The translations under genes and the position numbers were made by a program. From assembly GCA_964355175.1 (NCBI GenBank), contig CAYHBZ010000002.1, positions 396,537-460,536 of the forward strand: a stretch of DNA of 64,000 nucleotides, written 5' to 3'. The notes beneath the pieces are model-generated. The model saw nothing but the letters and a program-made list of their open reading frames with translations. It did not search any database and had not been told where the DNA came from. Within the stretch, counting starts at the first letter, position 1. Each line of letters opens with the position of its first letter. Shown here one piece after another: positions 5,801-57,335 of this stretch. This stretch comes from an uncultured Gammaproteobacteria bacterium (GTDB taxonomy: Bacteria > Patescibacteriota > Patescibacteriia > Magasanikbacterales > GWA2-37-8).

Positions 5801-7815
5801 GCGCCGGTGTGGTGCTTGGTTTGGAAGGCAAGACTATCGGCAGTGCAATAAATGAGCTTGTCCATAAAATTTCCGGAGATGGATCAAATGCGGAATTTGG
5901 TCGTCAGATGGCGCAAAATGTTTCAGCCAAGGTTGCGGAAGCTAAAGGTGTAAATCTGGGTAAAATACCAGATAATGCTCCGGTCGCTGCCGCAATTGCC
6001 GCCGCCGAAGCCAAAGCAGCTGCTGTGGCAGCGGGCACAGCTTCAGATCATGTAGCGTCCAATGGTTTGGAAAACTCCGCCGATACCGGCGCTGGTGAAA
6101 ATTCAGCTTTGGAGACTTTCTACCAAGAGCATCCAAAATTATCGAGTGATGCCAAAGCTTTTTTTGATGATCTTGTAAAACAACATACTAAATTAAACAA
6201 TCCTGATTTTCTCAAAAAACTTTGGGAAGTTTCTGGTAATTCTAAATCTTCGCTTGATATCACCGGTGCCAAAGTACAGACCGCTATTTTCACCGAGATT
6301 ATTCACAGTGAGGGCAAGGAAGCGGCCGTAGCTTATTTGAAAGATGAAACTCATTTGCACGGTTTGGCTTTGCAAAAATTAGGAAAAGATGGCGTTGAAG
6401 CTTTTGTGGAAAGATATCTCAAAGGTGATGCTGGTGTGCAAGCCAAGTTGGAAAATAAATTATATGGGGCCATGAAAGCTGATATTGATACCGATCTTAC
6501 AAACAAAGGTTTTATCCAGAGACACGGTGATGGATCGGTTCGGGATGTCGGTGCGGCTAAAGGCCGACATTTCTTTGGGGTTGGTAAAGACGGCAAGCCT
6601 GTATTAGACGATGGTAAGGTTTCTAGGTTTACCCATCACAGCCCTGAACATTCGGTGGCCGGAAGTGGTAAAACAGCTTTGGACAAAATAGTATCCGGTG
6701 AAAAGTTACCTAAAGTTGGTTTACATGAACAAAAAATTGGCATTGGTCCAAATATTCAAAAAGGAATTCCAACTGGTTGGGCCGCCGCTAGTGAAGCAGG
6801 TCCAAAAGGGCAGGCTATGGTAAATGGTTTTATGGATGAACAGGGCCATGGAAGATTTTTAATTCATTCTACTGATCCTGGATCAGAATTTGATGTGGAT
6901 AGAGACATGCGCATGGTGGATTCTAATAGCGGCAAAATTTTTGATCTCGATGGAAATCATGTCGGTTATCTAAATGCTCCGATGGCAGAGAATACTCCAA
7001 CACCAGTGTCCGCAACTCCAGGCAGAGCTAGTTGGTCTAGTGGTGGAAATGGTTCTGAAAAAGGTAACGCCACCCAAAATGTAGTCAGAGCAGAAAGATC
7101 TGTTGATCACGGCGGCGGCGGTGCTCCGAAAGAACAAGCGGTAGTAGCTCCTGCAGAACAAGAACCTGCTCCAGAAGAGAAGAAGCCAGTTCGAGAAACA
7201 AGAGCACAAGTAAAAGCTCCCGGTATTGAAGACATGCTAAAAGCCGAACAAACTCTACAAGAAGATATGAAAGTTGGTAAATCCGTGGAGGCTGAACCTG
7301 TTCCGGTGGTAAAAGAAATTACTTCATTGGAGGATGGGCGTGAGGCGATTGCGGCTTTAGAATATTTGGACGGCGAAGAAAAAACTCGTTTGAGTAATTT
7401 TAGTTACTTACTCCAATGGCAACATGATCTCTATGGTCAAAACGGTTCAACTTTGCGCAACATGCTGGAAGGACAGGATGCGTTTGGTACTCTTGGTAAA
7501 GATCAGATCAATAGTATGATGGCCGAGTTGGCTCATAATAATGAACTGGCCAGTCGAGAGTTTATGAGAGCAGTATCAGATCATCAGCCGTATGATAAAA
7601 TTATAGAAAAATTGAATGATAAGATGCCTGGTTACGCGATGTTCCATGATGAGGATAATGCCGGCTTTGTCGATAAGATTATAAAAACGGATCTTTCGCA
7701 AAATGCAGGCGAAAATAAGGCCGCTTTTAGAGATTTGGAACTGGCAAGAGTGAAAGAAATGGTGGATCAGGCCGAGGTAAACAAGCTAATGCAGGCTCGA
7801 CAGGCAAAAAGATAA
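2839..7815 (+). CDS. giant 1658-aa protein: MORN-like repeat modules, central hydrophobic/Ala-rich region, Pro/Glu-rich spacer, C-terminal helical domain
   Basis: Single uninterrupted ORF; three ~60-aa modules (F.GEIK..G..Y.G.AIL.SDG...FHG.GK) at about aa 165-215, 360-420 and 585-645. Confidence 0.8.
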   Translation: MARSNAAKNPALETATPPVVLVEDLKEKEIKQKKEMKLEKIESVFDAAKERVKGKEDHLAAMHAELVGLLNQIPDKENGDFTVRLHRFADRFGTIKNHLDNMVAESQLPELESGAFAPVDATESSPVSKSNSHISELKNFKDTSGAILNGAVNEKIKDKPIFRGSMVFKNGDHYVGFSILSADGSYKFHGEGSLEKDGGKMALEGFFQNGKLKNGHLIEKLADGRTRVVFAENEKAARVETGYFNSNNQLEGVGEIIDQKHGVKERGDFVNGELRDGYVVDLISGKPLEKWENGKQVEAGENLPAEITNSEKSFDRRLAAREKEREIKVEEVFEAVSGLDGLVNFEDVSNQVLNGKITHTPKSEHIFDGEIKSDSRGYKYQGQAILESDGVFRFHGQGKRTAEMAYAGKVEQEGEFSYGTFLNGVGIYTGQDMGYGADKVTEKMENGKTVERVFYLEKYKDKKDVLFAGQMFEKEFSKDNLYVGEFTMPNGSVYKGEAFKNKKGQFELVSGKSERIKSATVIDKFKDLFRFGRNKKEESKLATAEVQSEVEAEAEQAPEVVGEQAFLLVTPGGENYALKGIATDQSDGSRKFNGEIKNIDNGGEETGFQYSGEAILSSNNEITFHGKGKKSGAFFDETGEWNMGELENGEIHSKDGELLKKYVNGQEVAVTKPAEKSKEKSWIGKKLESAKESVASAYNFVTTKEGARLSNQAAYKIATGFVGIKIGTDIALAAYAGALNKVGEKDWFSEAFKKRLKEEAAVAGEYSDVYKHLGGREQIAAIKAGFAEFMSAVNPEENENVELNLVDEKYSALKAKIESSNRINQEAKGKFLAKLEEINQKFDHRNEKLDEQEVAEASAYMKAYIVNDTAAMQIARDSISGVAKAVMVGASGGSSLLLAGAIGRVMGMATTKVVERAQKSRRFNEQAALENKKTFNAAEDIKAALLETMHGLTFSKFNAGKDVKTGKDLDKKALFANFAKSFGNVLISAGVVLGLEGKTIGSAINELVHKISGDGSNAEFGRQMAQNVSAKVAEAKGVNLGKIPDNAPVAAAIAAAEAKAAAVAAGTASDHVASNGLENSADTGAGENSALETFYQEHPKLSSDAKAFFDDLVKQHTKLNNPDFLKKLWEVSGNSKSSLDITGAKVQTAIFTEIIHSEGKEAAVAYLKDETHLHGLALQKLGKDGVEAFVERYLKGDAGVQAKLENKLYGAMKADIDTDLTNKGFIQRHGDGSVRDVGAAKGRHFFGVGKDGKPVLDDGKVSRFTHHSPEHSVAGSGKTALDKIVSGEKLPKVGLHEQKIGIGPNIQKGIPTGWAAASEAGPKGQAMVNGFMDEQGHGRFLIHSTDPGSEFDVDRDMRMVDSNSGKIFDLDGNHVGYLNAPMAENTPTPVSATPGRASWSSGGNGSEKGNATQNVVRAERSVDHGGGGAPKEQAVVAPAEQEPAPEEKKPVRETRAQVKAPGIEDMLKAEQTLQEDMKVGKSVEAEPVPVVKEITSLEDGREAIAALEYLDGEEKTRLSNFSYLLQWQHDLYGQNGSTLRNMLEGQDAFGTLGKDQINSMMAELAHNNELASREFMRAVSDHQPYDKIIEKLNDKMPGYAMFHDEDNAGFVDKIIKTDLSQNAGENKAAFRDLELARVKEMVDQAEVNKLMQARQAKR

Positions 7816-7867: not shown

Positions 7868-7925
7868 ATTATTATATATTTTTGGCTAATTTTAGCCAAA
7901 ATAATTGATTTATTGGCCATACCCC

Positions 7926-7954
7926 TTGACAAAATTCGTAGATGGTGCTATACT
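7926..7954 (+). promoter_or_regulatory. sigma70-like promoter upstream of cassette A
   Basis: TTGACA (7926-7931), 17-nt spacer, TATACT (7949-7954). Confidence 0.5.
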
Positions 7955-8072
7955 AATCAGTTAAAATCAAATTTAACACCACGAATTATTGCGCCAGGTT
8001 TTGAGAGAGGCCCTAGCAATACATATAGACAGCTAGGTTAATTCTCTCTCAAAGGAGAATTTTTTACTTGTC

Positions 8073-8084
8073 GTTCTTTACAAT
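8073..8084 (+). promoter_or_regulatory. GTTCTTTACAAT box, copy 1 (followed by long leader hairpin, about 8093-8140)
   Basis: Exact 12-mer shared with 8941-8952 and 10397-10408. Confidence 0.5.
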
Positions 8085-8245
8085 AAATAGTGCTGAGCCC
8101 ACATGAGATCAAGAATTTCTTGATTTGATGCGGGTTCAGTGCACACAGCATTGACGTCCTCCGCGATTTTGCGGATTCGTTCAGTGCTGCGTACTGCAGC
8201 CAGGTCACGCGCCCACCTCAGTGGCGTTTCGTTCAGGAGTTTCCG

Positions 8246-8779
8246 ATGACCACCGCAAAGCACCCCGATCCGAACCATCCGGACCCCGGCACCACCGAAG
8301 AGCCCGTCGTCGACAAGGCGAAGGGCGACACGGTGGTGACCACGACGACCACCACGAGCGTTTCGTCGGCCGAGCCCATCAAGGCAAAGCCGGTGGCGAC
8401 CACCGACACCACGGCTGGCAAGACGGCGACCCAAGAGCCCAAGAAGGGTGGCTGGCCGCTCGGGACCATCGCCGGAGCTGTCGTGCTCGGTCTTCTGCTC
8501 CTCGGCGGCGTCTACTGGTTCGGCAGCCACAACAGCAGCACGCCGGTCGTCCCGCCCATCGCGGTCGCCGGTTGCTGTCTTCCCCAGGCCACCGTCGCGA
8601 GCCCCTGCTGCCCGCAACCGCCGGCTCCGCCCCCGCCGCCCGCCCCCGTCGTCAAGAAGAAGACGGTCGGCGAGTGCGTCGCCCAAGCCGTCGCCGGCAT
8701 GGAGGTCGCCCATGAGGACGACCGCCTCGCCGCGATGGACGGCGCCCGCGAAGAATGCGAGGAAGAATACGGCAAGTAG
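8246..8779 (+). CDS. GC-rich cassette A: bitopic membrane protein (Thr/Pro-rich N-terminal region, one TM, Cys/Pro-rich C-terminal region), no recognised family
   Basis: AGGAG 6 nt before ATG; strong G/C at codon position 3 in this frame only; TM WPLGTIAGAVVLGLLLLGGVYWF preceded by KKGG. Confidence 0.65.
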   Translation: MTTAKHPDPNHPDPGTTEEPVVDKAKGDTVVTTTTTTSVSSAEPIKAKPVATTDTTAGKTATQEPKKGGWPLGTIAGAVVLGLLLLGGVYWFGSHNSSTPVVPPIAVAGCCLPQATVASPCCPQPPAPPPPPAPVVKKKTVGECVAQAVAGMEVAHEDDRLAAMDGAREECEEEYGK

Positions 8780-8940
8780 CCGTTCCTGTCTCGCGTCGCT
8801 ATGTCGGTTCGGCGGGCCCTCAGCAATGAGGGTCCGCCGGCCGACTGGCTCGAATAGGACCTTTGTAGATTCCACTAGGGAAACTCCAAAGGTCCCCTAG
8901 ATTACATTCTTTTGGAAACAAGAGGATGTTGATAGGAAAA

Positions 8941-8952
8941 GTTCTTTACAAT
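8941..8952 (+). promoter_or_regulatory. GTTCTTTACAAT box, copy 2 (TTGATA 12 nt upstream)
   Basis: Exact 12-mer; about 35 nt upstream also similar to the copy 3 region. Confidence 0.5.
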
Positions 8953-9196
8953 TAAAACCAACAAAATTTTTTCCCACCTAAAAAGAATTATTATTTATAG
9001 TAATTCACTCTCGGTGGGAAAAAGTGTGGCGGAAATTCCGTTGCATAGCCTCCGACAGAGTCCCAATTGGGGCAAGTGCCCCGCGTGCGGGCTACTCTGT
9101 TACAGCGACCATTTCTGGGAAGCTGACCGAACGGCCCGCACGGCCGGTGTTCCAGTGTCTTGGTTTCGTGGGGTGAAAGTCCCCTGGAGTACAGCG

Positions 9197-10192
9197 ATGA
9201 ACAAGAATTCGAAGTTCCACAACCTCAGCATCTTGCTGACCCTGGCCATGGGGATCATGGTCGCTTCCAATTCCTACGCCGACGTGGCCACGGCTCGCGC
9301 TCGTGCCGAAGCCGCTCGTAGCCAGGCCAATCGGGCTGAGGTGAAAGCGGTCGACGCACAGACTGCGGCCAACGCGGCCAAGACCGGCGCCACCAACGCC
9401 CAGACCGCGGCCGATCAGGCCAAGGTCGAAGCGACCGCGGTGGGCACCAAGGCGGCCACTGACCTCGCTACGGCGATCCGCGCCCTCAACGGTGCGGTCG
9501 GCGGTGCGCGTGCGGCAGCGGTCAACGGTGATCGTCAGCTCGAGCGCAAGTTCAAGGCGGAGGCCGAGCGCCTTCAGACCGAGATCGAAGCGCTCAAGAA
9601 GCGGGCGCAGCACGAGTGTGCGGCGTTCGATGACAAGGGCAGCCAGGCGGCCTGTCTGACCATGCTCGAGAAGATCAACGCCAAGAACGGCGAAGTCACC
9701 ATGCACGGGCAAGACAAGGACACGGAGGTCCAGATCGCCAAGGTGGGACAGCAGTCCAAGGTGGTCCAGGAGATCTTCGACAACGCAAACCAAAACATGG
9801 ACGCCATCAAGGCGATCCAAATGGGTTGCGTCAACCAGGCCTTCGTCGACAAGGACGGCGTCAGCAAGAGCAAGTGGGAATGCCCCAAGGACATGAAGCG
9901 CGGCCCGCAGTTGCGCTACGAGCTCACGAACGTCTCGAAGTACGGCGACCACAGCGTCGTCATCGAGCCGGCCGAGAGCGGTGGCAATTCCAAGTGGGGC
10001 AAAGTGCTCGGCTTCGGCGCCATCGGTGGTGCTGCTGGCGGTGCTCTTGGCTGGGCCTTCTTCCCGAACCATGAAACCATGGAAGATGGCAGCGTCATGC
10101 ACCGGAATTACACCGGTCTCGTCGCTGGCACGGCCATCGGTTTCGTGGTCACGGCGGTGGCCACCCTGGTCATCGAAGAACTGACCGAATAG
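9197..10192 (+). CDS. GC-rich cassette B: secreted Ala-rich coiled-coil protein with C-terminal Gly-rich hydrophobic anchors, no recognised family
   Basis: GGAG 7 nt before ATG 9197; signal-peptide-like MNKNSKFHNLSILLTLAMGIMVASNSYA; GC3-biased frame; 9014-9196 treated as 5' leader. Confidence 0.65.
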   Translation: MNKNSKFHNLSILLTLAMGIMVASNSYADVATARARAEAARSQANRAEVKAVDAQTAANAAKTGATNAQTAADQAKVEATAVGTKAATDLATAIRALNGAVGGARAAAVNGDRQLERKFKAEAERLQTEIEALKKRAQHECAAFDDKGSQAACLTMLEKINAKNGEVTMHGQDKDTEVQIAKVGQQSKVVQEIFDNANQNMDAIKAIQMGCVNQAFVDKDGVSKSKWECPKDMKRGPQLRYELTNVSKYGDHSVVIEPAESGGNSKWGKVLGFGAIGGAAGGALGWAFFPNHETMEDGSVMHRNYTGLVAGTAIGFVVTAVATLVIEELTE

Positions 10193-10396
10193 GTCAACGG
10201 GTGAGGAGATCACCCCAAAGGATTGCAAGTGTGTTGGTTCACTTGCGCCAAATCTCGGTGTAGCTTATCTTGTCCCGCATTCGCGGTACGAGAGAAAGTT
10301 CACTAAACCGGTGGCGTGAACGATGGCTCAAATAGAGCTGTCGGTCACGCCCCAACAACTATCTTCTGTTTTTCAAACAGGGGATTGAGTTGGTAA

Positions 10397-10408
10397 GTTC
10401 TTTACAAT
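10397..10408 (+). promoter_or_regulatory. GTTCTTTACAAT box, copy 3 (TTGAGT 12 nt upstream; followed by hairpin, about 10426-10476)
   Basis: Exact 12-mer. Confidence 0.5.
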
Positions 10409-10641
10409 TTATTTCGTTAGATTTTCTCATACAGGACATAGGATATTTTTTGTATCTTGTGTCCTGTGTGAGAAGCCCCCAGTGGGGGTTGCCTGGGTGA
10501 AAACCCGACTAGGTCGGGGCGTTCGCTCCGGCAATTCCTCACTAGGGTGGTAAAAACGCCATCCGGACGGGTCAACTTCGACCTTTTCGGTAAAGTAGCA
10601 GTGTCTTTCTTTGTCCGCCCTTTAGTGGGCCGGAGGTTCTG

Positions 10642-12063
10642 ATGCGTAACCGGTTTCAATTGGTCGCGACTCTCGCGATGGCGGCTGCAGCCTGTGCAGC
10701 GTGTGGTGTCATCGAACATCCGGCCGATGCGGTCGTGATCGTGGTCGAAAAAGACGCCAGCAGCCAGGATGTCCAGCAGGACAACGGTCCGGCGCAGCAG
10801 CCCGAGATCGCGCAGACGGCCGACATCGCGCAGGACAACGGTCCGGCGACGAAGCCTGAGTGCGCGGTCGACAGCGACTGCGACGACAAGAACCCCTGCA
10901 CGACGGACGTCTGCGGCAGCAACGCCTGCGTCCACGTGGCCAACTCGGTCTCGTGCGACGACGGCAACGCCTGCACCAGCAACGACAAGTGCGGCTCCGA
11001 GAAGTGCTCGGGTGACCAGAAGGTCTGCGACGACAACAACCCCTGCACCGACGACGGCTGCGTCAGCGACGGCACCTGCCTGCACGGCGTCAACATCGTC
11101 AACTGCGACGACAGCGACGCCTGCACGGAAAAGGACCAGTGCGCCAACGGTAAGTGCGTCGGCCAGGTGAAGTCGTGCGACGACAAGGACAACTGCACGA
11201 CGGAATCGTGTGACAAGCTCAACGGGTGCTCGTCCACTCCGGTCGTCTGCCAGGACGCCGGGGATCCGTGCACGACGGAATCGTGCGACAAGGCAACGGG
11301 CAAGTGCTCGTCCACCACCGACTGCGACGACAAGGACGTCACCACGTTGGATGCCTGTGAACCGCTGCTCGAGACCGTGGGAATGGAGAAATGCCTCCAC
11401 ATCAAGATGCAGACCAAGTGCACCAAGAATGCGGATTGCGACGAGGACGGCGATCCGTGTTCGTTCGAGTTCTGTTCCCAGATCGGCTACTGCGCCAGCA
11501 AGTGGAAGTTGTGCGATGACGGAGACTACTGCACCCAGGACGAATGCGTCCCTCAGGCCGACTACGCCTGGTGCAAGAGCACTCAATACTCATGCGACGA
11601 CTACAACGCCTGCACGCTGGACTCCTGCACCAACGGCTACTGCCAACACAAGGGCAACGCCGCCATGTGCGACGACAAGGACTCCACCACCGCCGACTCG
11701 TGCAACCCTTCCCAGGGCTGCGTCAACACGCCGATTCCTCAACCCGGCGTGCCGAGCTCGACTCCTCCCTCGAATCCCTCGACCTGTGCGGCCTGGGGAG
11801 CGTGGATTTACTTGCCCACGGGCAACTGGCGCGGCGGCTATGACCTGACCGGTTCGTCTTCGCAAGAAACGGACCTGACAATCAGCGTCGACCAGTGGTA
11901 CGGCTTCAGCAACGCTCATTCTGTGTGGGCGTGGCTCAAGCCGTGGGGCAGTGCGGTACCGGCAAGCGTCAAGTGCACTGATCGGTGTGGTGTGGTCTTC
12001 CCCGCGAAGATCAGTGCCATGGCGGGTGGCTTCATCGCCATCTGCAGCACCGACCAGAAGTAG
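10642..12063 (+). CDS. GC-rich cassette C: Cys-rich repeat lipoprotein/secreted protein (tandem C-D-D-x-N-x-C-T-x-D-x-C units, Dicty_CTDC-like)
   Basis: GGAGG 5 nt before ATG; N-terminus MRNRFQLVATLAMAAAACAAC (signal/lipobox-like); 12 or more repeats of ~24 aa with spaced Cys; unrelated ~120-aa Trp-rich C-terminal domain. Confidence 0.75.
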   Translation: MRNRFQLVATLAMAAAACAACGVIEHPADAVVIVVEKDASSQDVQQDNGPAQQPEIAQTADIAQDNGPATKPECAVDSDCDDKNPCTTDVCGSNACVHVANSVSCDDGNACTSNDKCGSEKCSGDQKVCDDNNPCTDDGCVSDGTCLHGVNIVNCDDSDACTEKDQCANGKCVGQVKSCDDKDNCTTESCDKLNGCSSTPVVCQDAGDPCTTESCDKATGKCSSTTDCDDKDVTTLDACEPLLETVGMEKCLHIKMQTKCTKNADCDEDGDPCSFEFCSQIGYCASKWKLCDDGDYCTQDECVPQADYAWCKSTQYSCDDYNACTLDSCTNGYCQHKGNAAMCDDKDSTTADSCNPSQGCVNTPIPQPGVPSSTPPSNPSTCAAWGAWIYLPTGNWRGGYDLTGSSSQETDLTISVDQWYGFSNAHSVWAWLKPWGSAVPASVKCTDRCGVVFPAKISAMAGGFIAICSTDQK

Positions 12064-12330
12064 GCGGGGCTCAGGGGGTCTAACGGAAAAAGTTTTTGCT
12101 CTTTGGTAAAAGCAAACGGAAGGAGGTGTTCCTTTCGATAGGCCATTTCGGCCACCCATGCCAGAGGCGAGCGATCGCTAAAGGCTGGTCAACTAGGGGT
12201 GGTGTTGCTTCACCGCACACCACCCCGACCATCTCTAGCTCACAATATCTGTTGTGATCTGAAGATGGAAATAGCAATATGTCCATGACAAAAATACCAC
12301 CCTTCTCTCGGGCGGTTTTTTGTTTTTTAA

Positions 12331-12356
12331 GATTCCTCGCTACGCTCGGAATGACA
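12331..12356. repeat. REP-like element, half site (GATTCCTCGCTACGCTCGGAATGACA)
   Basis: Reverse-complement orientation of the GTCATTCCGAG...GAGGAATC family seen five more times. Confidence 0.6.
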
Positions 12357-12358
12357 AC

Positions 12359-13741
12359 TTAGACCTTGGCACTCCAATAACCCCATACTGCCCACCACCA
12401 CCAGATCACCGGGGTGTGGTGAAGCATGTTATCAGAAGCACTCAAAGTGAGATAAACAAAGATGCTAGTGATGAATACAAAATTTGTCCAAGCATTTTTT
12501 TTGCCCCATTTTATTTCTCGATAAAGTAAACTGATAAAAATTCCAATATACAGAGCTAGGCCTATAAGTCCGGATTCAAACCCAATTTTGAGATAATCAT
12601 TATGGGCCTCGGAAGTGGAGTCCCAGATGTTTTCCACCCCTTTATTATCATCCCAAACTTTGGCAAAGCTACCATAGCCGTAGCCAGTGAGAGGGTGTTT
12701 GCTCCAAAGTGGAATTACTTTATTAAAAAGATCCGCGCGCCAAGAGATAGAGTCGGCTTCCATGTTGCGGCTGGTCATACGGGCCACGAGCGGGCTTTGC
12801 TGTAGGTTTACATTTAGGGTAGTTTTGAGCCAATAATTTATTGGGAAGAATAGTCCATACAATATTAAAATTCCGGCGGTAAAAATAATGGTTTTTTCGC
12901 GAGCATATTTGAGGCCAATAGCCAATAAAAATATGGCCAAACCAATCCAGGCAATGCGGGTATAGGTAAGAGCGATAGCTACGGCCAAGAATACCATGGT
13001 CAAAACATATAGTTCACCTTTGGATTCTTTAAATAAATTTGGTTTAAATTTGAGCAGTTTGCTGGCGTGCTCTAGGTAATTATGATATTTATGAAACAAA
13101 AATATAAATAAAATTAGGGAAAAAGTGGCTAGGATATTGGGGTGGGCGAAAGTGCCATAGATGCGATTGGGGGTGCCGTCGATATCCATGCCGGTTTTGG
13201 TAATAAACTGGTAAATAGCCAGTAAGAATGTGGCAATGCCGGAAGAAATAAACAACCAAAAGAAAATTTTATCAAAAAATTCACCGTGTTTGCGGCGTAA
13301 AATATAGCTCATTCCAAACAGGGCAAATAGGTTGGCGCCTTTGAGAGTTTCGGTGATAGTGGCCATTGTATCAAAGCTCCAGAAAAAAGTGGCGCCACTC
13401 CAGACTATAAAAGCTATCCATATTCCGGTCAAAGGAACATTTTTAAATTCGCTAAAATGTTTGTAAAAAAATATTACGGACCAGGCTAATAGTAACAATG
13501 ATACGGCCGCGTTGAGATTGAGGTGAATGGCGTTGTAGGAAAAAATGACATAGTCGCGCCAGTAGTCCATGGTCGGGCGGGCTAGCAATAGGGTGAGTAG
13601 GGCATAGTCGCCAAAGAACTTGTAGAGTACGATGACCACGATGGCCAAGAGGGCTAGGATATCGCCGCCGGTGGTGGGATTGAAAATGGTAAAAATTAGT
13701 AGTCCGCCGATGAGCCACTGGGTAAGGGAGAGCTTGTTCAT
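12359..13741 (-). CDS. O-antigen ligase/Wzy-like polytopic membrane protein
   Basis: 460 aa, 10 or more TM helices with a large loop in the C-terminal half, typical of the Wzy_C/O-antigen ligase family. Confidence 0.6.
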   Translation of the reverse strand: MNKLSLTQWLIGGLLIFTIFNPTTGGDILALLAIVVIVLYKFFGDYALLTLLLARPTMDYWRDYVIFSYNAIHLNLNAAVSLLLLAWSVIFFYKHFSEFKNVPLTGIWIAFIVWSGATFFWSFDTMATITETLKGANLFALFGMSYILRRKHGEFFDKIFFWLFISSGIATFLLAIYQFITKTGMDIDGTPNRIYGTFAHPNILATFSLILFIFLFHKYHNYLEHASKLLKFKPNLFKESKGELYVLTMVFLAVAIALTYTRIAWIGLAIFLLAIGLKYAREKTIIFTAGILILYGLFFPINYWLKTTLNVNLQQSPLVARMTSRNMEADSISWRADLFNKVIPLWSKHPLTGYGYGSFAKVWDDNKGVENIWDSTSEAHNDYLKIGFESGLIGLALYIGIFISLLYREIKWGKKNAWTNFVFITSIFVYLTLSASDNMLHHTPVIWWWWAVWGYWSAKV

Positions 13742-13804
13742 AATTGGGGTTAAGTGATTTGATTATAGCATAAATTTAAGGTAAAATATAGTAGTATATA
13801 AATT

Positions 13805-13828
13805 GTCATTCCCGTGTAAACGGGAATC
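13805..13828. repeat. REP-like element variant (GTCATTCCCGTGTAAACGGGAATC)
   Basis: Hairpin variant of the same family; generates the spurious TTG-start N-terminus MSFPCKRESK of ORF 13803. Confidence 0.55.
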
Positions 13829-13841
13829 TAAAATTAATGTT

Positions 13842-14840
13842 ATGTCCCATACCAAAATGCCGATTGACTGCGTGGTAGCGCTCACCTACAACTGTAACGC
13901 CCGCTGTACCATGTGTGATATTTGGAAAATAAAAAACTCTCCGGAATTGACTTTGGAAGATTTGGCCAAATTGCCCGACTCATTGCGTGATGTGAATATT
14001 TCGGGCGGTGAAACTTTTTTGCGTAAAGATTTGCCGGAAATTGTGGCCGTGATTAAAAAAGCTTGCCCGAAAGCGCGTCTGGTAATTTCATCCAATGGAT
14101 TTTTGCCGCCGGTGGTAGATAAGGCGATGGACAAAATTCTCAAAATCGCGCCGGATATTGGCGTGGCGATTTCTATTGATGGTATGGGTAAGATGCATGA
14201 TGAAATGCGCGGCACTCCGGGCGGATTTGATCGCTGTATGGAAACCATTCGTATTCTGAAATCCAAAGGCATGACCAACTTGCGCTTGGCTTTTACTATT
14301 ACCGAATACAATGCGGAACATTTTCCGCTAGTGTATGATCTGTCTCAGGAGCTCGGCATTCAATTCACACACAGTTTTGCTCAAAGCAGTGAATTTTATT
14401 TTGGCGGCAAACAAAATATTAATAATCCGCCGCGTGAATTGTTGGTGAAAGGCTATACGCATATTATTCGCAGTGAGCTCAAAAGCTGGAATGTGAAGCG
14501 CTGTTTGCGTGCCTTTTTTGCCAGCGGTATGTTTCGGTTTATTACGAGCAAAAATCCGGTGCTCGATAATGCGCCGGGTCGTGACTTTTTCTTTTTGGAT
14601 CCGGCCGGTGATATTTATCCGTCCGTAGTGCACAATTTTATTTTGGGTAATATTCGCAAGGTAGATAATTTTCGAGAATTTTGGCTGAACCCTGACACCG
14701 ATGAGCGCCGTAAAAAGGTAGATGCGCTCAAAGTACCGGTATGGATGATCTGCACCGCGCGTACGGCTCTATACAATCATCCGTTTGCCGTAGGTTGGTG
14801 GATTTTTAGACATAAATTTTTTGGATTTAATATTCAGTAA
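13842..14840 (+). CDS. radical SAM enzyme
   Basis: CNARCTMC (CxxxCxxC) near N-terminus; ATG 13842 downstream of the REP element. Confidence 0.75.
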   Translation: MSHTKMPIDCVVALTYNCNARCTMCDIWKIKNSPELTLEDLAKLPDSLRDVNISGGETFLRKDLPEIVAVIKKACPKARLVISSNGFLPPVVDKAMDKILKIAPDIGVAISIDGMGKMHDEMRGTPGGFDRCMETIRILKSKGMTNLRLAFTITEYNAEHFPLVYDLSQELGIQFTHSFAQSSEFYFGGKQNINNPPRELLVKGYTHIIRSELKSWNVKRCLRAFFASGMFRFITSKNPVLDNAPGRDFFFLDPAGDIYPSVVHNFILGNIRKVDNFREFWLNPDTDERRKKVDALKVPVWMICTARTALYNHPFAVGWWIFRHKFFGFNIQ

Positions 14841-14847
14841 CAACAAT

Positions 14848-14902
14848 GTCATTCCGAGTGTAAGGAGGAATCTTTAAGATTCCTCACTTTGTTCGGGATG
14901 AC
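14848..14902. repeat. REP-like element, full palindrome (two inverted half sites)
   Basis: GTCATTCCGAGTGTAAGGAGGAATC-TTTAA-GATTCCTCACTTTGTTCGGGATGAC. Confidence 0.65.
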
Positions 14903-14911
14903 AAATTATAT

Positions 14912-16108
14912 ATGAAAATAGTATTGGTCAATAAATTTTGGTTTTCTCGCGGGGGAGCGGAAAAGGTGGCTATCCTTACCAAGGAGCTACTGGAGCAAGC
15001 CGGTCATACGGTGGAAGTTTTTGGTATGCGTCACCAAGATAATTTATTTGAGAATAAATATTTTACCGATTTTATAGATTACAATCAGGCTTCTTTTTGG
15101 CAGAAAATAAAATTTGCCGGCCGAACGATATATAATTTTCAAGCCGCGCGCAATTTCGAAAAGTTGTTGAGTGACTTTCAGCCGGATGTTGTACACTTCC
15201 ATAATATTTACCATCAGCTATCTTGCTCAATTATTGGTGTGGCCAAAAAGATGAATATCAAAACGGTAATGACTTTGCATGATTATAAATTAATTAGTCC
15301 AAACTATAATCTTTATCATCACGGTGGCGTGTCGGCGGAGTGTGTGGGTGGAAAATATTATCGTTGTTTACTTCATAATTGTATGGAGGATAGGGCACAG
15401 AGTGTGTTGGCTACTATAGAAGCATATTTTGTGGACCTGATGGGGTATAAAAAAATGGTTGGAAAATATTTGAGCCCTAGTGATTTTCTGCGTACCAAAT
15501 TTATCAACGCGGGATTTGATAGTGATGAAATACAAGTCTTGCCAAACCCACTGAGGGCCAATGAATTTGTTTTGGCGGGAGCGACTTCAGATTATGTCGG
15601 CTATATTGGGCGCTTGGCACCGGAAAAAGGGGTAGAATATTTATTGCAGGCCGCTGAGCTTTTGCCTGATATTGATTTCAAAATTGCCGGGGCCGGGCCA
15701 AGCCGAAAATATTTAGAAAATCTAATTGAGAAAAATAAAATTAGTAATGTGGAATTGGTAGGACAAAAACACGGAGCGGATTTGCAGAATTTTATTTTGC
15801 AGTCCCGTCTGCTAGCTGTGCCATCGGTATGGCATGAAAACGCGCCGATGAGCGTGGTGGAAGCCAAGGCACACGGCAAAGTGGTAGTGGCCTTTGCGAT
15901 GGGCGGAATTTCTGAAATTTTACCGCCGGAATTATTGGTAAAACCAAAAAATGTTTCCGAGTTGGCGCAAAAAATAAAAACTTGGTATGAAGCCGGCCCA
16001 GAAAGATTATTGGATATGGGCAAGGAATTACAAGCTCAGGCGAAACAAAATAACAGTCCGGAAGTGTATTTGGAAAGATTGTTGAAAGTTTATAAAGATG
16101 AAAAATAA
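14912..16108 (+). CDS. glycosyltransferase, GT4/GT-B family
   Basis: 398 aa; N-terminal KFWFSRGGAEKV and C-terminal E..P.SVVEA..G.VVV motifs typical of GT4. Confidence 0.8.
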   Translation: MKIVLVNKFWFSRGGAEKVAILTKELLEQAGHTVEVFGMRHQDNLFENKYFTDFIDYNQASFWQKIKFAGRTIYNFQAARNFEKLLSDFQPDVVHFHNIYHQLSCSIIGVAKKMNIKTVMTLHDYKLISPNYNLYHHGGVSAECVGGKYYRCLLHNCMEDRAQSVLATIEAYFVDLMGYKKMVGKYLSPSDFLRTKFINAGFDSDEIQVLPNPLRANEFVLAGATSDYVGYIGRLAPEKGVEYLLQAAELLPDIDFKIAGAGPSRKYLENLIEKNKISNVELVGQKHGADLQNFILQSRLLAVPSVWHENAPMSVVEAKAHGKVVVAFAMGGISEILPPELLVKPKNVSELAQKIKTWYEAGPERLLDMGKELQAQAKQNNSPEVYLERLLKVYKDEK

Positions 16109-18095
16109 ACTGATACTCTATAGGTCAGCCGTCGCGATATTTTTGGGGATTTTTATCTCAGTTTTTTGTTATTTCAATTCGTATGTTTATGGTGCTCCAA
16201 TTTTGGCCAACTATATTTTGGGTACATTGCCACAAGATAGCGACTCGATTGCCCAGCTGGCCAAATTTGATTTGCTCATAGTTTCCGCCGAGCAGGGAGT
16301 GGTGCGCAAAGCAGTTTTGCAAAAAGTGCGTGAACTAAATCCAAAAATAATTTTGTTGGCCTATGTGCCGTCGCAAAGCACCAATGATTCCTGGAAAGAA
16401 TATCCGGCCAATACTTTGTATGGAAATTTTCAGATGAATGATAACTGGTGGCTACGTGATACGGCCGGCCGTCAGATTTCTGATTGGCCGCGTCTGCACA
16501 ATGTTGATCTTAGTCAGGGTTGGTCCGATTACCTGATTGGTTATGTAAAAAATAATATTTTATCTCAAGGACTTTGGGATGGAATATTTTATGATATGTT
16601 TTATGACAGTATTGCGGATAGAAATCATGGCGATATTGATCTCAATCGTGATGGCATGAGAGATGATGCGAGTTGGGCCAACGCGCAGTGGGTGAGTAGG
16701 ATGAGTTATTTGCTCAGCGCCAGCCAACAGCGCCTCGGAGTGAAATATATTATGATCAATGGAAATTCGATTCCTTCTTTGCAAAGTATGGCCAATGGCC
16801 GTATGTATGAAAATTATCCGACTCCGTGGGAAGTTGGTGGTAGTTGGACCGGTATTATGACCGGTCTCAAACGCAATCAGTCGCTCAACGCCAAACCTCA
16901 GCTCTATGTCTTCAATGCTAATACGGCCAATACCGGCAATCAAAAAGATTATCGTCGGATGCGCTTTGGTTTTGCCAGCAGTTTGATGCTAGACAATGTT
17001 TATTTTAGTTTTGATTACGGGGATAGAGATCACAATCAGATCTGGTGGTATGATGAGTATGGTGTAGGGCTGGGAAATTCCGTTGCCAATCCAATTTCCC
17101 AAAACGGTCAGGTGCAATTTAATGCCAGCGATATTTGGCGTCGTGATTATGAGCATGGTATTGCTTTGGTCAATCCTAGTGGCAACACTCAGACGATTGA
17201 TCTAGGAAATGAGTACGAAAAAATTATCGGCAAACAAGATGCTTTTACCAACAACGGTGAAATCACTTCCAATGTTACTATTCCGGCTCGTGATGGATTA
17301 ATAATGCTCAAAACTTCCCAAACTTTACAAAATGTTTCTTTTAAAAATGGTAGTTTTGTCAGATTCTTTGATATGTTTGGCAAAAGAGCGCGTAACGGTT
17401 TTTTTGCCTTTGAAGATAGTAGTCCCGGTGGCGCAATAGTTTTTCGTGGGGATTTAAATAATGACAATACGGTAGAAAAGGTAATGTCTTCCCAGGGTAG
17501 ATTTCAAATTTTTAATACAGCGGGTCAGATTTGGTATGATAATTATCCATACAATGGTAATTATAATTCTGATCTTCGGTTTGCGGTAGGCCAGAGTTTT
17601 GGTCAAGAAAATCAGATATTAATTTCTCCGGCATCGGGTGGCAAGGCGGTTTTGTATAATTATCACGGGGGTGTGCTAAAGGATGATTTCTACCCTTTTG
17701 GTGCCAAATATAAAATGGGTTTTTATGGCGGTTTGGGACATTTTGATAGCTTGGACAGCTGGCAAATGGTTTTTGGATCAGGGGGAAAACAGGCTGGAGT
17801 AGTGCTTATTTATGATACCCAGGCAAACAAAGTGAAACAAAAGTTCTATCCTTTCAGTATAAAGTACTTGGGAGCGGTGAAAATTGCTGTCGGTAATTTG
17901 ACCGGTGACACCCATTCGGAAATAGTAGCTATGGCTAAGATTGGCCATAAAAATATTGTTCGAGTCTTTGATATGAAAGGTAAACAACTCTCTGAGTTTT
18001 CCGTCGGCGGTCCATTTGATGGGGGTGACCTAAATATCTATACTTCGGATATAAATTTCGATGGTTTCTCAGAACTGGTAATAGTAGGGGAATAG
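16098..18095 (+). CDS. exported protein: putative glycoside-hydrolase-like (GHL15-type) N-terminal domain plus FG-GAP/VCBS-like C-terminal repeats
   Basis: Signal anchor; N-terminal half resembles the hypothetical glycosyl hydrolase-like family; C-terminal D.N.D...E repeats. Confidence 0.45.
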   Translation: MKNKLILYRSAVAIFLGIFISVFCYFNSYVYGAPILANYILGTLPQDSDSIAQLAKFDLLIVSAEQGVVRKAVLQKVRELNPKIILLAYVPSQSTNDSWKEYPANTLYGNFQMNDNWWLRDTAGRQISDWPRLHNVDLSQGWSDYLIGYVKNNILSQGLWDGIFYDMFYDSIADRNHGDIDLNRDGMRDDASWANAQWVSRMSYLLSASQQRLGVKYIMINGNSIPSLQSMANGRMYENYPTPWEVGGSWTGIMTGLKRNQSLNAKPQLYVFNANTANTGNQKDYRRMRFGFASSLMLDNVYFSFDYGDRDHNQIWWYDEYGVGLGNSVANPISQNGQVQFNASDIWRRDYEHGIALVNPSGNTQTIDLGNEYEKIIGKQDAFTNNGEITSNVTIPARDGLIMLKTSQTLQNVSFKNGSFVRFFDMFGKRARNGFFAFEDSSPGGAIVFRGDLNNDNTVEKVMSSQGRFQIFNTAGQIWYDNYPYNGNYNSDLRFAVGQSFGQENQILISPASGGKAVLYNYHGGVLKDDFYPFGAKYKMGFYGGLGHFDSLDSWQMVFGSGGKQAGVVLIYDTQANKVKQKFYPFSIKYLGAVKIAVGNLTGDTHSEIVAMAKIGHKNIVRVFDMKGKQLSEFSVGGPFDGGDLNIYTSDINFDGFSELVIVGE

Positions 18096-18125
18096 CAGTT
18101 ATTTTAGCGGGTATTTGCTTGCATA

Positions 18126-18154
18126 TTGACAGGCGCTGGTTTTTTTGATTTAAT
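18126..18154 (+). promoter_or_regulatory. sigma70-like promoter of cassette D
   Basis: TTGACA, 17-nt spacer, TTTAAT; same hexamers as cassette E promoter. Confidence 0.55.
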
Positions 18155-18306
18155 AATAAGTCGTTTGTTCTTTATTTGGCAGGATAATTTTGGATTAAAA
18201 TTTTTAATTCAGAGTTATCGTGCCAACTTTCTCAATGCGTGTCGGCGAAATGCGTCGATATGTAAAGAGAGGTGCGAGAGCCTACATGGTAGGCAGGAGA
18301 GCAGGA

Positions 18307-19122
18307 ATGGCAGACAGCAGCCACAACGTTACTCAGGTCGGCATCACCGTCGGGCCGCCCAACGCCGATCTCGGCAGTGTGGTGGTTCGTCAGGAGGCGG
18401 CCAGGGCGGATCTCAATGAGCGGCGTACGCATCTCAGCTTGGTTGTCAAGCCCTCGGTCGATGATCTGGTCGCGCGGCTGAATGTCGAGCGGCAGGAAGT
18501 CGACCGCATCGGCGCGCTGGTCGATGCGGTAGAGCGCGAACAGGCGAAGAGCGTCAAGCACTTCGAATCGACGCTCGGCGGGCAGGCGCGGCTCTGGAAG
18601 AAGGGTTTCGACGCCCATGAGCGCTCGATCTTCTGGGTCAAGCTCCTCGGCGTCGTCGGCCTGGTCCTGGTCGGTATCGTCCTGGTCCTGAACCTGTCGT
18701 CCTCCTCGGACATCTCCACGGCCAAGTCGGAAGCCATCTCGGCCAAGACCACCGTGGCGGAGTTCAAGAAGGCCACCCAAGGCGAGGTCGTCAAGATCAA
18801 GAAGAGGCTCGATGCCAACAAGCTCGACATGGATCAGCTCAAGGATCAGATCAAGGTCGTCGGGCTCAAGGCTGACAAGAGCGTCGTCACTCGCATGGGC
18901 GAAGAGCTCAAAGAAGCCAACATCGAGCAGGACGGTCGGATCCAGGACATCGCCACCGCGATCATGGGCAAGGCCGACATAGCCGATCTCAAGAGCGTGA
19001 GGAGCGCAGTCGCGCAGGTTCGCCGGGCCAACGGCAAGGTGAACACGAAGATGACCAGGCTCGAAGCTCAGGTCCTGGAGCTCAAGGCCCAACTCCAGGC
19101 CCAACAGCCCAAGACCATGTAG
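18307..19122 (+). CDS. GC-rich cassette D: bitopic membrane protein with extracytoplasmic coiled coil, no recognised family
   Basis: AGGAGA 6 nt before ATG 18307; TM WVKLLGVVGLVLVGIVLVLNL; heptad-like K/D/L-rich C-terminal half; GC3-biased frame. Confidence 0.65.
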   Translation: MADSSHNVTQVGITVGPPNADLGSVVVRQEAARADLNERRTHLSLVVKPSVDDLVARLNVERQEVDRIGALVDAVEREQAKSVKHFESTLGGQARLWKKGFDAHERSIFWVKLLGVVGLVLVGIVLVLNLSSSSDISTAKSEAISAKTTVAEFKKATQGEVVKIKKRLDANKLDMDQLKDQIKVVGLKADKSVVTRMGEELKEANIEQDGRIQDIATAIMGKADIADLKSVRSAVAQVRRANGKVNTKMTRLEAQVLELKAQLQAQQPKTM

Positions 19123-19185
19123 TCCGTTCCCGATCTGTTCGGGCACTTGTAGTTTAGCCTTGATTTCTGAAGGCAAAAGCTCGGT

Positions 19186-19300
19186 GAGGACGCAAAATCC
19201 CCCCAAGGGTGTGTCGTTTACTCGACACTACCTGCTTAGTTCGCAAAAAATTGTTTGCTGAGCAGAATAAAAAATCCGCTATTATGGTGGATTTTTTAAT
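19186..19300 (+). repeat. 3' repeat R1, copy 1 (three hairpins, the last a terminator)
   Basis: About 80% identical to 20118-20238; bulged hairpin GGTGTGTCG-TTTACT-CGACACTACC; ends AAAAAATCCGC...GGTGGATTTTTT. Confidence 0.6.
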
Positions 19301-19330
19301 CTAAAATATGCTGTTTTTAGGTCAGTAGTA

Positions 19331-19359
19331 TTGACAAAGTAGGATTTTTATGTTTTAAT
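19331..19359 (+). promoter_or_regulatory. sigma70-like promoter of cassette E
   Basis: TTGACA, 17-nt spacer, TTTAAT. Confidence 0.55.
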
Positions 19360-19504
19360 AGTTCATTAGATTGTTCTTTTTAATCAATTCGCGCGACAAT
19401 TATAAATTAAAATTTTTCAATTTATAATCGTCGTGCGAATTTCAGTTTATCAATGACGGCCAGTCGGAGGTTCCGATTGGTTCAGCTCTTTCTGCGAGGT
19501 GAGC

Positions 19505-20074
19505 ATGGTTGATTTCAATCCCCCGGATCCAGTGGATCCAGAGAAGAAAAAGAAGCCTTCGTCGGCTGTGGAGACAGACCACAATTGGGAAGCCTGGGCC
19601 AACGATAATTCGGTCGATGACGGCAGTCATCCTCTGCCTGGTGAAGCCGAATACGTCGGACGGTCCGACCTTCCCATGACACGGGCACAGAAAGAGCGCA
19701 TCGCCGCGATCGTAGTCGGTACGGCCTTCCTGGTGTTGGTTTTCTTTGTCATCAATTTCGCTATCGGCAACAAGCTCAAGCATTCTGAAGCGGCCTCGTC
19801 CAACGAGGCTGGCAAGCAGAGCGCTCAGGCAAGTGCCGAAGTAGAATTGAAGGCAGAAGAAGCCGCCTCAGAGCAGGATCATACGGTCTCGCTGCCGGAT
19901 CACGCTTCGCAGGAAGATGATCTGGACGATGCTCGCGCGACCATCAAGGTCGTCGGTTTGGAGAAACGGCGCGTTCGAGATCCAGAGATGGAGCGGATCG
20001 CCGCAACCATCAAGATCGTGCCACTGCGTGTCAGTCCTGTCGCGGTACCGCTTCCAGCGGCCGCTACTCAGTAG
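19505..20074 (+). CDS. GC-rich cassette E: bitopic membrane protein with acidic C-terminal region, no recognised family
   Basis: GAGGTG just before ATG 19505; TM IAAIVVGTAFLVLVFFVINFAIG preceded by RAQKER; GC3-biased frame. Confidence 0.6.
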   Translation: MVDFNPPDPVDPEKKKKPSSAVETDHNWEAWANDNSVDDGSHPLPGEAEYVGRSDLPMTRAQKERIAAIVVGTAFLVLVFFVINFAIGNKLKHSEAASSNEAGKQSAQASAEVELKAEEAASEQDHTVSLPDHASQEDDLDDARATIKVVGLEKRRVRDPEMERIAATIKIVPLRVSPVAVPLPAAATQ

Positions 20075-20117: not shown

Positions 20118-20238
20118 ACAGGACAAAAAATCCCCAAAAGGGTGTGCCGACTGAAAAGTCGGCACTACCTGCTTAATCAATAAAACATTGTTTATTGAGC
20201 AGAATAAAAAATTCACTTTGAAAGGTGGATTTTTTAAT
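20118..20238 (+). repeat. 3' repeat R1, copy 2
   Basis: Same three-hairpin layout as 19186-19300; stem 1 differs by paired substitutions (GGTGTGCCGAC / GTCGGCACTACC). Confidence 0.6.
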
Positions 20239-34000: not shown

Positions 34001-34354
34001 CTACCAGGCGCCCATGGGCTGAGACGTAGGCTTGGCGACTTCCAGTTCCTGGGCCGTGGCCAGACGCGCTCCGGCACAGGTGCCCAGCACCCACTGGATC
34101 ACGAGCAGGTCACCGACCTTGGTCTCCTTGGGGACGAACAACGGGAAGCCGCTGCGGTCCTCGTCGGCTCCGCGCTTGTGTTCGTTCTCTGCGAAGTAGC
34201 GATGGCCGCTCTTGTCGCTACGTCCGAGCACGTAGAAGATCGGAGTCTCCGGATGCTGGTCGGCGTTGTTGCTGTCGCGACGGATGAGTTTGCCTTGGGG
34301 TACAAAGATACCGACACCGGTTTCGAGCCGGAAGACACCGTGAAAGATAAGCAT
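34001..34354 (-). CDS. GC-rich cassette F: 117-aa soluble protein, no recognised family
   Basis: AAGGA 6 nt before ATG; GC3-biased frame on minus strand; own promoter and leader hairpin. Confidence 0.6.
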   Translation of the reverse strand: MLIFHGVFRLETGVGIFVPQGKLIRRDSNNADQHPETPIFYVLGRSDKSGHRYFAENEHKRGADEDRSGFPLFVPKETKVGDLLVIQWVLGTCAGARLATAQELEVAKPTSQPMGAW

Positions 34355-56121: not shown

Positions 56122-56206
56122 GGAGAGGTCGCATAGTGGCCGAGTGCGCCGCCTTGGAAAGGCGGTATACCGCAAGGTATCGAGGGTTCAAATCCCTCTC
56201 TCTCCG
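56122..56206 (+). tRNA. tRNA-Ser (anticodon GGA), long variable arm, CCA not encoded
   Basis: Hand-folded: acceptor GGAGAGG/TCTCTCC, anticodon stem CCGCC/GGCGG with loop TTGGAAA, 16-nt variable arm, T-arm GAGGG-TTCAAAT-CCCTC. Confidence 0.85.
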
Positions 56207-57327: not shown

Positions 57328-57335
57328 GAGGACTC

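Follow-up and report, generated by a model that had tools for sequence, protein, structure and literature searches.

The stretch of DNA analyzed here (64,000 nucleotides, hereafter the window) is part of a 953,736-bp contig (CAYHBZ010000002.1 of assembly GCA_964355175.1) from a Magasanikbacteria-like bacterium with a host DNA of ~41% GC, and the span of this contig suggests a genome of probably ~1 Mb. At least 11 GC-rich units encoding orphan proteins, termed cassettes, lie within ~79 kb amid the housekeeping genes of this genome. Ten of them are in the window, namely A to E, J (34001-34354, minus strand) and F to I, the last four lying directly past tRNA-Ser(GGA), and an eleventh, cassette K, is found just beyond the window edge (L105 4712-5062, minus strand). 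Upstream of cassettes A to E lies the element studied here, a conserved 12-nt box followed by a long hairpin, which we regard as a candidate boxA-type RNA signal. The GC content at third codon positions (GC3) ranges from 0.62 to 0.87 in the open reading frames (ORFs) of the cassettes, compared to 0.33-0.49 in each host gene tested. Shine-Dalgarno sites precede all nine cassettes checked (A to I), and the products are mostly membrane, surface or small zinc-ribbon proteins. The flanks are ordinary housekeeping genes, and neither an integrase nor a transposase was found in or near any cassette island. Proteins identical to those of the cassettes are encoded on contigs of several other, independently assembled runs, which excludes an assembly chimera, and one homologue carries the label Candidatus Magasanikbacteria.

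The five cassettes that carry the box are all encoded on the plus strand. Cassette A (ORF 8246-8779, GC3 0.87) encodes a single-pass membrane protein of 177 residues, with the Shine-Dalgarno sequence AGGAG upstream. The 331-residue product of cassette B (9197-10192, GC3 0.82) possesses a signal or membrane anchor, a coiled coil and C-terminal membrane segments, and that of cassette C (10642-12063, 473 residues, GC3 0.84) has a lipoprotein-like signal and Cys-rich Dicty_CTDC repeats. Cassette D (18307-19122, GC3 0.85) encodes a single-pass membrane coiled-coil protein of 271 residues, counted from an ATG with a Shine-Dalgarno site, and cassette E (19505-20074, GC3 0.62) a single-pass membrane protein of 189 residues. 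Searches of the cassette proteins with Pfam, PHROGs, NCBIfam and PADLOC gave almost no domain matches, except for the Dicty_CTDC repeats of C, a weak RanBP-type zinc ribbon in G and weak tail-fibre coiled-coil matches in B. A HMMER search with protein C returned 9,498 repeat-protein matches, almost none of which bears a taxon name, and the structure model of protein I was unusable, with a mean predicted local distance difference test (pLDDT) score of 34.5.

The exact 12-mer GTTCTTTACAAT occurs three times in the window, always on the plus strand, at 8073-8084 (A), 8941-8952 (B) and 10397-10408 (C); in dinucleotide-preserving shuffles 0.01 copies are expected, and none of 100 shuffles reaches three. 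Together with its spacer, the copy of cassette C reads GUUCUUUACAAUUUA. The 12-mer is also exactly conserved upstream of the orthologues of B in the related locus L096 and of C in L095. The boxes of cassettes D (18167-18178, plus strand) and E (19373-19384, plus strand) diverge and read GTTCTTTATTTG and GTTCTTTTTAAT, respectively, and the D orthologues read GCTCTTTACAAT in L104 and GTTCTTTTAAAAT in L103. The first-pass annotation of this DNA had reported the three exact copies with the right coordinates and sequences, its hairpin examples near 8093-8140 and 10426-10476 also proved to be quoted correctly, and we found the 12-mer nowhere else in the window. It had also proposed the D and E variants. 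A search allowing up to three mismatches gave them no significance by itself (90 matches against 90.4 expected, the D variant having four mismatches); nevertheless, they are genuine, since GTTCTTT is present in the 5' modules and the orthologous modules retain the motif. The heptamer occurs 14 times in the window, of which five copies are in sense orientation in the 5' modules of A to E and nine are scattered away from them, and the E module keeps it in all three taxa compared (the window, L103 and L104). The box itself is in sense orientation in every copy.

Comparison of the five paralogous modules and their orthologues showed GYTCTTT in 11 of the 11 copies with available core sequence, with flanks and a TACAAT part that vary. 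TACAAT is missing from the D copy of the window (TATTTG) and from the E orthologue of L104 (TTCTAC). The conserved core is GYTCTTT(A), and not the -10-like TACAAT. The box was also described as cassette-specific, which is correct within the window, but it is carried by only five of the at least 11 GC-rich cassettes. Ranking of the 27 GYTCTTT sites by downstream folding energy placed the cassette copies 1st, 2nd, 3rd, 6th and 8th, a ranking confounded by the GC-rich DNA downstream. A coding role of the box was ruled out, as its reading frame is a different one in each of A, B and C, and so was pairing with the 3' regions, as the complement AAAGAAC is in no cassette.

Every box is followed by a long, near-perfect hairpin of 22-25 bp (z-score of the folding energy -4.1 to -7.7); an equally good fold was obtained in none of 200 shuffles. 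The hairpins begin 9-27 nt, mostly 13-17 nt, from the start of the box. Hairpin A (8090-8142, plus strand as for the others) has 23 pairs including four G-U pairs (z -5.9) and is more stable in sense than in antisense RNA (-32.3 versus -21.9 kcal/mol). The same holds for hairpin C (10423-10475, ~23 pairs, z -7.7; -34.8 versus -20.2 kcal/mol) and hairpin D (18176-18226, z -5.1; -27.4 versus -13.3 kcal/mol), the latter with two compensatory pairs. Hairpin B (8967-9025, z -4.1) has an AT-rich apex and is nearly unchanged in L095 and L096, and the inner stem of hairpin E (19386-19441, z -5.6) is rewritten in the relatives yet still pairs, with three compensatory pairs. Altogether, the hairpins contain one to four G-U pairs, and the sense strand is the more stable one in eight of 12 cases. 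The compensatory changes, the G-U pairs and the stability of the sense strand argue for a role in sense RNA. The U-rich loops vary, and so does the sequence of the hairpin between cassettes. A search against Rfam 15 at gathering scores detected only two tRNAs, and permissive thresholds added generic hairpins only.

The position of the box relative to predicted promoters falls into two classes. Cassettes D and E each have a predicted promoter of the type TTGACA-N17 (18126-18154 and 19331-19359, both TTGACA-17-TTTAAT on the plus strand), and the box lies 5-17 nt past its -10 element; these promoters are conserved in three taxa. In the relatives the D promoter reads TTGACA-17-TATGTT and lies 5 nt before the box, and the E promoter is invariant in the three taxa. 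Owing to these conserved promoters 5-17 nt upstream, the box of D and E is probably transcribed, and in the orthologues of D and E it would lie at positions from roughly +1 to +11 in the predicted RNA. Cassette A is preceded by a strong predicted promoter (7926-7954, plus strand, TTGACA-17-TATACT) that has a TG before the -10 element and 11 of 12 consensus matches, ~119 nt upstream of the box. No promoter comparable to that of A was found upstream of B and C, nor was a clear intrinsic terminator between A, B and C; the three cassettes probably form one operon driven from 7926-7954, with B and C transcribed by read-through. A probable terminator of this operon lies at 12296-12332 (plus strand), where an imperfect stem is followed by TTTTTGTTTTTT; it was scored on the minus strand, has one A-C mismatch on the plus strand and is conserved in L103.

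The leaders between box and start codon are 132-256 nt long in the five cassettes with a box, against ~30-100 nt in the six without one, and those of B and C fold well beyond chance (z -4.2 and -8.5, respectively). Downstream of hairpin B, a GC-rich structured leader (9026-9196, plus strand, z -4.2) is 98.9% identical to that of L095, though the B proteins share 49% identity.

Relatives of the cassette proteins are rare: two to four each were found for I, B and D among 5.8 billion proteins. Every relative with fetched genomic context lies at the matching position of a related low-GC genome or is flanked by the same non-coding modules. The order and position of A-B-C and D-E are conserved in relatives whose host genes (SufB, SufC and TrhO) are 84-88% identical in nucleotide sequence. 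The coding sequence of B is only ~66% identical to its relatives (44-49% at the protein level), compared to 82-99% for the non-coding box, hairpin, leader and 3' region, with the 174-nt leader 98.9% identical to that of L095 and the 3' region 89-91% identical (window 8780-10641 versus L095 and L096). As the non-coding identity of B exceeds its coding identity, the non-coding scaffold appears constrained and the ORFs fast-evolving. The leader of C switches from conserved to variable ~90 nt upstream of the start codon, a pattern suggestive of recombination breakpoints. The cassette ORFs are GC-rich in every relative (GC3 0.82-0.87). A search for related loci via SufB in species-representative genomes gave only Actinomycetota and Chloroflexota matches of 62-68% identity, and the GHL15 gene between C and D has three distant metagenome relatives (37-50% identity), none of which has the GC-rich block.

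The conserved core points to boxA. The boxA consensus GYTCTTTAANA was established in gamma-proteobacteria, where mutation of C4 or T6 abolished function (PMC5725501). The boxes of A, B and C match it at 10 of 11 positions, C4 and T6 included; the host is a bacterium of the candidate phyla radiation (CPR). The motif had been defined independently of boxA, and a random 11-mer of the window reaches a 10/11 match at ~20 of 128,000 positions, or 1.6e-4 per register. Aligned to the consensus, the D orthologue of L104 reads GCTCTTTACAA, and the RNA core GYUCUUUA is matched at 8/8 positions in A to D and at 7/8 in E. The E. coli rrn boxA with its spacer reads UGCUCUUUAACAAUUUA (PMC2724277), compared to AGUUCUUUA-CAAUUUA for the RNA of cassette C, so that the match continues into the NusA-binding spacer; the identities amount to 14/17 for cassette C and 15/17 for the D orthologue of L104. 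In E. coli, each of the 5,426 complete genomes carries the boxA element at 100% identity; the median copy number is seven, and the element lies ~100 nt upstream of the 16S rRNA.

The arrangement of the module also resembles the N-utilization (nut) site of phage lambda, in which boxA, spacer and stem-loop follow one another: a hairpin lies behind every copy of the box and, in most modules, begins 13-17 nt from the box start, compared to 17 nt in nutR. Moreover, boxA is established beyond the rRNA operons, in the suhB leader and upstream of arrays of clustered regularly interspaced short palindromic repeats (CRISPR), and its consensus drifts between phyla (Baniulyte 2017; Stringer 2020), and foreign genes are preferentially silenced by Rho (PMC12360218). 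Taken together, we propose with moderate confidence that the box in the leaders of A to E is a boxA-type RNA element, that is, a putative signal for NusB/NusE-loading antitermination and RNA chaperoning that is nut-like together with its hairpin. This identification is based solely on sequence and genomic context, and the strength of the argument lies in the fact that an independently defined, conserved and leader-located motif falls on the boxA consensus. The first-pass annotation had left the choice between an operator, an alternative-sigma element and a 5'-end RNA motif; the last is the one we favour, and the promoter option loses ground because TACAAT is not conserved.

Several points weigh against the boxA identification. 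Position 9 of the consensus, an A, is a C in cassettes A to C, and the E copies have only 7/8 of the core. One-mismatch matches to the consensus are not enriched in the AT-rich window (20 versus 14.8 expected). Two perfect GYTCTTTAANA sequences lie antisense inside coding genes (3624-3634 and 61867-61877, both on the minus strand) and are taken as chance; as such matches occur, the consensus by itself carries little weight in this genome. Transcription across the boxes of B and C relies on the inferred read-through from promoter A. The hairpins are far longer than lambda boxB and variable in sequence, no N-like protein or gene was recognised, and six other GC-rich cassettes do without the box. 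In addition, boxA can also promote Rho termination or, in suhB, repress translation, which leaves the direction of its effect uncertain. As for the hairpin itself, lambda boxB identity was rejected, because it has stems of 22-25 bp and U-rich, variable loops rather than a short stem with a purine-rich pentaloop. The C/G ratio, used as a proxy for Rho sites, does not discriminate, as the cassettes contain 27-38% C against 16-22% in host genes but are equally G-rich.

If the box works as a boxA, the transcribed GUUCUUUA(CAAU) would be bound by the NusB-NusE(S10) heterodimer, which together with NusA and NusG would render RNA polymerase processive and resistant to Rho and to pausing; the Nus complex might also chaperone the folding of the RNA. 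The polymerase would thus be carried through long (132-256 nt), untranslated, structured and GC-rich leaders, and further through ORFs whose codon usage is foreign to a genome of 41% GC. The cassette genes may well be exposed to Rho, since foreign codons are likely to be translated poorly and to uncouple transcription from translation. In the putative A-B-C operon, a fresh boxA would stand ahead of each cistron, and D and E would be served from their own promoters, with boxA at about +5 to +11; in rrn operons, too, boxA stands in the leader and again in the 16S-23S spacer. The 22-25-bp hairpin would act in the sense RNA, and its role is the least certain step of this scheme. It might part the Nus-bound boxA from the mature mRNA, as a 5' stabiliser or a processing site of the RNase III type, comparable to the lambda N leader and rRNA precursors, or it might be a pause site giving the Nus complex time to assemble.

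Other explanations share part of the same evidence. The U-rich, single-stranded box might be cleaved by an endoribonuclease of the RNase Y, E or J type, leaving the hairpin as the protective 5' stem-loop of each mature monocistronic mRNA. Sense-RNA hairpins immediately behind the box suit this explanation, and a polycistronic precursor is plausible, as B and C have no canonical promoter and A-B-C no clear terminators; in Staphylococcus aureus, RNase Y cleavage of saePQRS depends on a stem-loop a few nucleotides downstream, and 5' stem-loops stabilise mRNAs. Nevertheless, we consider it unlikely: it leaves the 10/11 boxA match and the match to the rrn spacer unexplained, known RNase sites are degenerate rather than 12-mers exact across paralogues, and cleavage would gain little in D and E, where the box already sits at the predicted 5' end of the primary transcript. 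Processing can, however, be reconciled with boxA, the hairpin then being the processing site. Quite unlikely, in our judgement, is a loading site for a specialised factor, either a NusG paralogue of the RfaH or LoaP type or another RNA- or DNA-binding protein, or an operator overlapping the transcription start. A 12-nt leader motif before long, foreign-looking genes of surface proteins resembles the RfaH ops elements, LoaP requires a leader hairpin, and the box of the D orthologues coincides in part with the predicted transcription start, where operators classically lie. However, the box is unlike ops (GGCGGTAGnnTG), the hairpin sequence is not conserved across modules, and no gene for a regulator or a NusG paralogue was seen in ~90 kb of this genome and its relatives. 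As an operator, moreover, the box is non-palindromic and without a repeat partner, and it lies 119 nt from the promoter in A and near no promoter in B and C.

Interpretation of the box as a promoter element, with TACAAT as the -10, GTTCTT as an upstream element for a housekeeping or alternative sigma factor and the hairpin as 5' stabiliser of the primary transcript, seems improbable. TACAAT would make a good -10, a start ~7 nt downstream would put hairpin A at about +1 and hairpins B and C at about +8 to +12, and B and C have no other recognisable promoter. Yet the pattern TAnnnT is lost in D and in the E orthologue of L104, whereas GYTCTTT is kept; no -35 element lies at 16-18 nt and no TG extension is present; and in the D and E orthologues the box directly follows a conserved canonical promoter, which would require two overlapping promoters. 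The upstream similarity of ~35 nt reported for B and C does exist (34 nt, 74% identity), and so does the TTGA 12 nt before TACAAT in both, but the spacer is 11 nt in L096; with spacers of 12 and 11 nt, a sigma-70 promoter was rejected. Far less probable again is a boundary of mobile or recombining DNA, such as an attC-like site, an end of the insertion sequence (IS) type IS200/IS605 (TTAC target plus subterminal hairpin) or another recombination site. The cassette-like layout, the short conserved motif adjoining an imperfect palindrome, the TTAC target of IS608 contained in the box and the varying cassette content of the second island (F to I) in relatives all recall such elements. Nevertheless, this explanation is already largely refuted, as integrase, transposase and TnpA are absent in and near every island, the A-B-C and D-E order and position are kept in relatives, and the hairpins vary in sequence from one cassette to the next and contain G-U pairs, which favour RNA over DNA. 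An integron attC site, or an array of such sites lacking an integrase (CALIN), was rejected because the box lies outside the hairpin and fits neither core (GTTRRRY and RYYYAAC), and an IS200/IS605-type end because of the differing hairpins, the missing transposase and the fixed cassette positions. A viral origin was likewise rejected: IMG/VR yielded no relatives of proteins B and D, and the three extended-box matches there are chance, lying in AT-rich phage DNA with neither hairpin nor GC-rich payload. Readings as LexA, extracytoplasmic function (ECF)-sigma and SPO1-type promoter elements were dropped, along with those as attC and IS608 ends, because their sequence or spacing does not fit.

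The six cassettes that lack the box are organized differently. They comprise F (56406-56774), G (57106-57327), H (57524-57925), I (58198-58746), J and K, each with its own TTGACA-N17 promoter and a short leader, and GC3 is 0.69-0.77 in the five within the window. The F-G-H-I island (56300-58900) starts right after the tRNA-Ser(GGA) gene at 56122-56207. G and H have a common C-terminal zinc ribbon and look like tandem paralogues. Between F and G lies the 3'-end remnant (56977-57042) of an AT-rich glyoxalase-family gene that is intact in relatives (821-1219 in L091). Cassette H is missing from L091, and in L108 the glyoxalase gene (2-238) directly precedes I; therefore, the content of the second island turns over between close species.

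The 3' sides of several cassettes carry further conserved elements. D and E have a common 3' module (19190-19297 and 20125-20234; 7880-8000 and 8815-8935 in L103), consisting of AAAATCCCC..AAGGGTGTG, a hairpin, CACTACCTGCTTA, a second hairpin and a terminator GAGCAGA..AAAAAATCC..GGATTTTTT, which is conserved in relatives with compensatory changes. The 3' region of B opens with the related GAGGAGATCACCCCAAAGG. The ~190-nt 3' region of F (56780-56975; 555-745 in L091) is multi-stemmed and ends in a long AT-rich terminator hairpin, and its stems show apparent compensatory changes (cccggtc..gtccggg versus cctggtc..ggctggg in L091). In addition, mini-ORFs of eight to nine codons with strong Shine-Dalgarno sites lie 5-18 nt past the stop codons of G, H and I, directly before a nested-hairpin terminator (57336-57362, 57932-57958 and 58764-58793; 1508-1534 and 2337-2366 in L091, 333-359 and 1161-1190 in L093, and 1000-1029 in L108). 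The encoded peptides are MRIRAPPP*, MHYSTGPP* and MVSIRAPPR*, respectively; that after I reads MVSIRAPPR, MVSIRAPPQ (twice) and MYSIRAPPR in four taxa, with synonymous Ala codons (GCT, GCA and GCC). RAPP has been published as a motif of ribosome arrest (PMC10951233, PMC12992588), and its place in a mini-ORF between gene and terminator, rather than upstream of a regulated gene, looks unusual.

Two observations concern the host DNA around the cassettes. Directly upstream of cassette A, positions 2839-7815 encode a protein of 1,658 residues with host composition and no precomputed Pfam domain, in which MORN-like segments of the type G-x-Y-x-G-E/F recur; it may be a giant surface protein. Furthermore, a 27-nt palindrome, AAGATYCCTC-N8-CGGRATGAC, occurs five times in the window, where none is expected, at or near gene ends (12329-12355 and 14876-14902 on the plus strand; 14848-14874, 50539-50565 and 56084-56110 on the minus strand), and by its appearance is a host repeat resembling repetitive extragenic palindromes.

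More surprising than the box itself is the evolutionary setting, in which GC-rich orphan genes have non-coding parts better conserved than their ORFs, a contrast that sharpens the evolutionary question. The cassette ORFs evolve several times faster than housekeeping genes and yet stay GC-rich across species, which disfavours a simple recent transfer followed by amelioration and suggests that the GC-rich composition is actively maintained. Possible causes include repeated exchange with some unseen pool of GC-rich genes, a GC bias driven by recombination and adaptation of the cassette messages to a GC-rich partner organism, on which epibionts of this kind are thought to depend. Tentatively, and as a possibility that we still doubt, a CPR lineage might maintain clade-restricted, GC-rich orphan genes wrapped in conserved, host-like regulatory RNA, namely leaders with boxA and hairpin, structured 3' regions and, in some cassettes, RAPP-type arrest mini-ORFs, with dedicated antitermination enabling the expression of these alien genes. 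We found no description of such a system in the literature on Magasanikbacteria and GC content.

With a working boxA, the range of Nus-factor antitermination would come to include protein-coding genes of the CPR, where, to our knowledge, transcription control is essentially unstudied. The signal would be used cistron by cistron for compositionally foreign genes, as a cellular counterpart of lambda nut and enterobacterial RfaH, and would offer a handle on a long-standing practical problem of reduced, AT-rich symbionts, namely how they express and control surface proteins that evolve fast and probably mediate host contact. The motif would also be expected before the rRNA genes, as a general host signal recruited by the cassettes; the window and the fetched loci of this lineage contain no rRNA gene.

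The module is best read as a known kind of signal, boxA/nut-like, in a new variant and an unusual setting. Among the known systems, the rrn boxA with its Nus complex (NusB, NusE, NusA, NusG, SuhB and S4) shares with the cassette box the core GYUCUUUA and an A/U-rich spacer, as well as the position in a predicted leader before a long structured RNA that is untranslated for more than 130 nt. As in A-B-C, it is also repeated inside a multi-gene unit. In contrast, the cassette box precedes protein-coding genes rather than rRNA, has one A fewer than that of E. coli and is followed by its hairpin, whereas the rrn boxB precedes boxA, and its host is a CPR bacterium.

The lambda nut site shows the same order and a similar spacing (boxA, a spacer of 8-9 nt and a hairpin, with an additional boxC) and likewise lies in leaders of genes foreign to the host. 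Between nutL and the ribosome-binding site of N, the lambda N leader forms a long stem that is sensitive to RNase III. However, lambda boxB has 5 bp and a GNRA-like pentaloop, compared to stems of 22-25 bp and variable loops in the cassettes, where a sequence-specific hairpin binder is unlikely because the hairpin sequence differs between cassettes.

The boxA elements of suhB and the CRISPR arrays also stand ahead of long, untranslated or Rho-vulnerable units other than rRNA, and they too were first recognised by sequence match and position. They differ in being single, in having no obligatory hairpin and in being proven by chromatin immunoprecipitation and genetics, compared to a cassette box known from its sequence; moreover, boxA acts as a repressing, not a protecting, element in suhB. 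RfaH ops and LoaP follow the same logic, in which a short leader motif, joined by a hairpin in LoaP, licenses processive transcription of foreign operons for surface structures, although ops has no sequence likeness to the box and acts as non-template DNA, whereas the evidence from the cassettes favours RNA.

Finally, the cassettes resemble phage morons and genomic islets, which are also compact, self-contained units of promoter, gene and terminator with deviant GC content between unrelated genes, and one cassette island adjoins a tRNA gene. Compared to these, the cassettes lie in a cellular core genome without phage or integrase context and are clade-restricted orphans at fixed positions, GC-rich across species and with non-coding parts better conserved than their ORFs.

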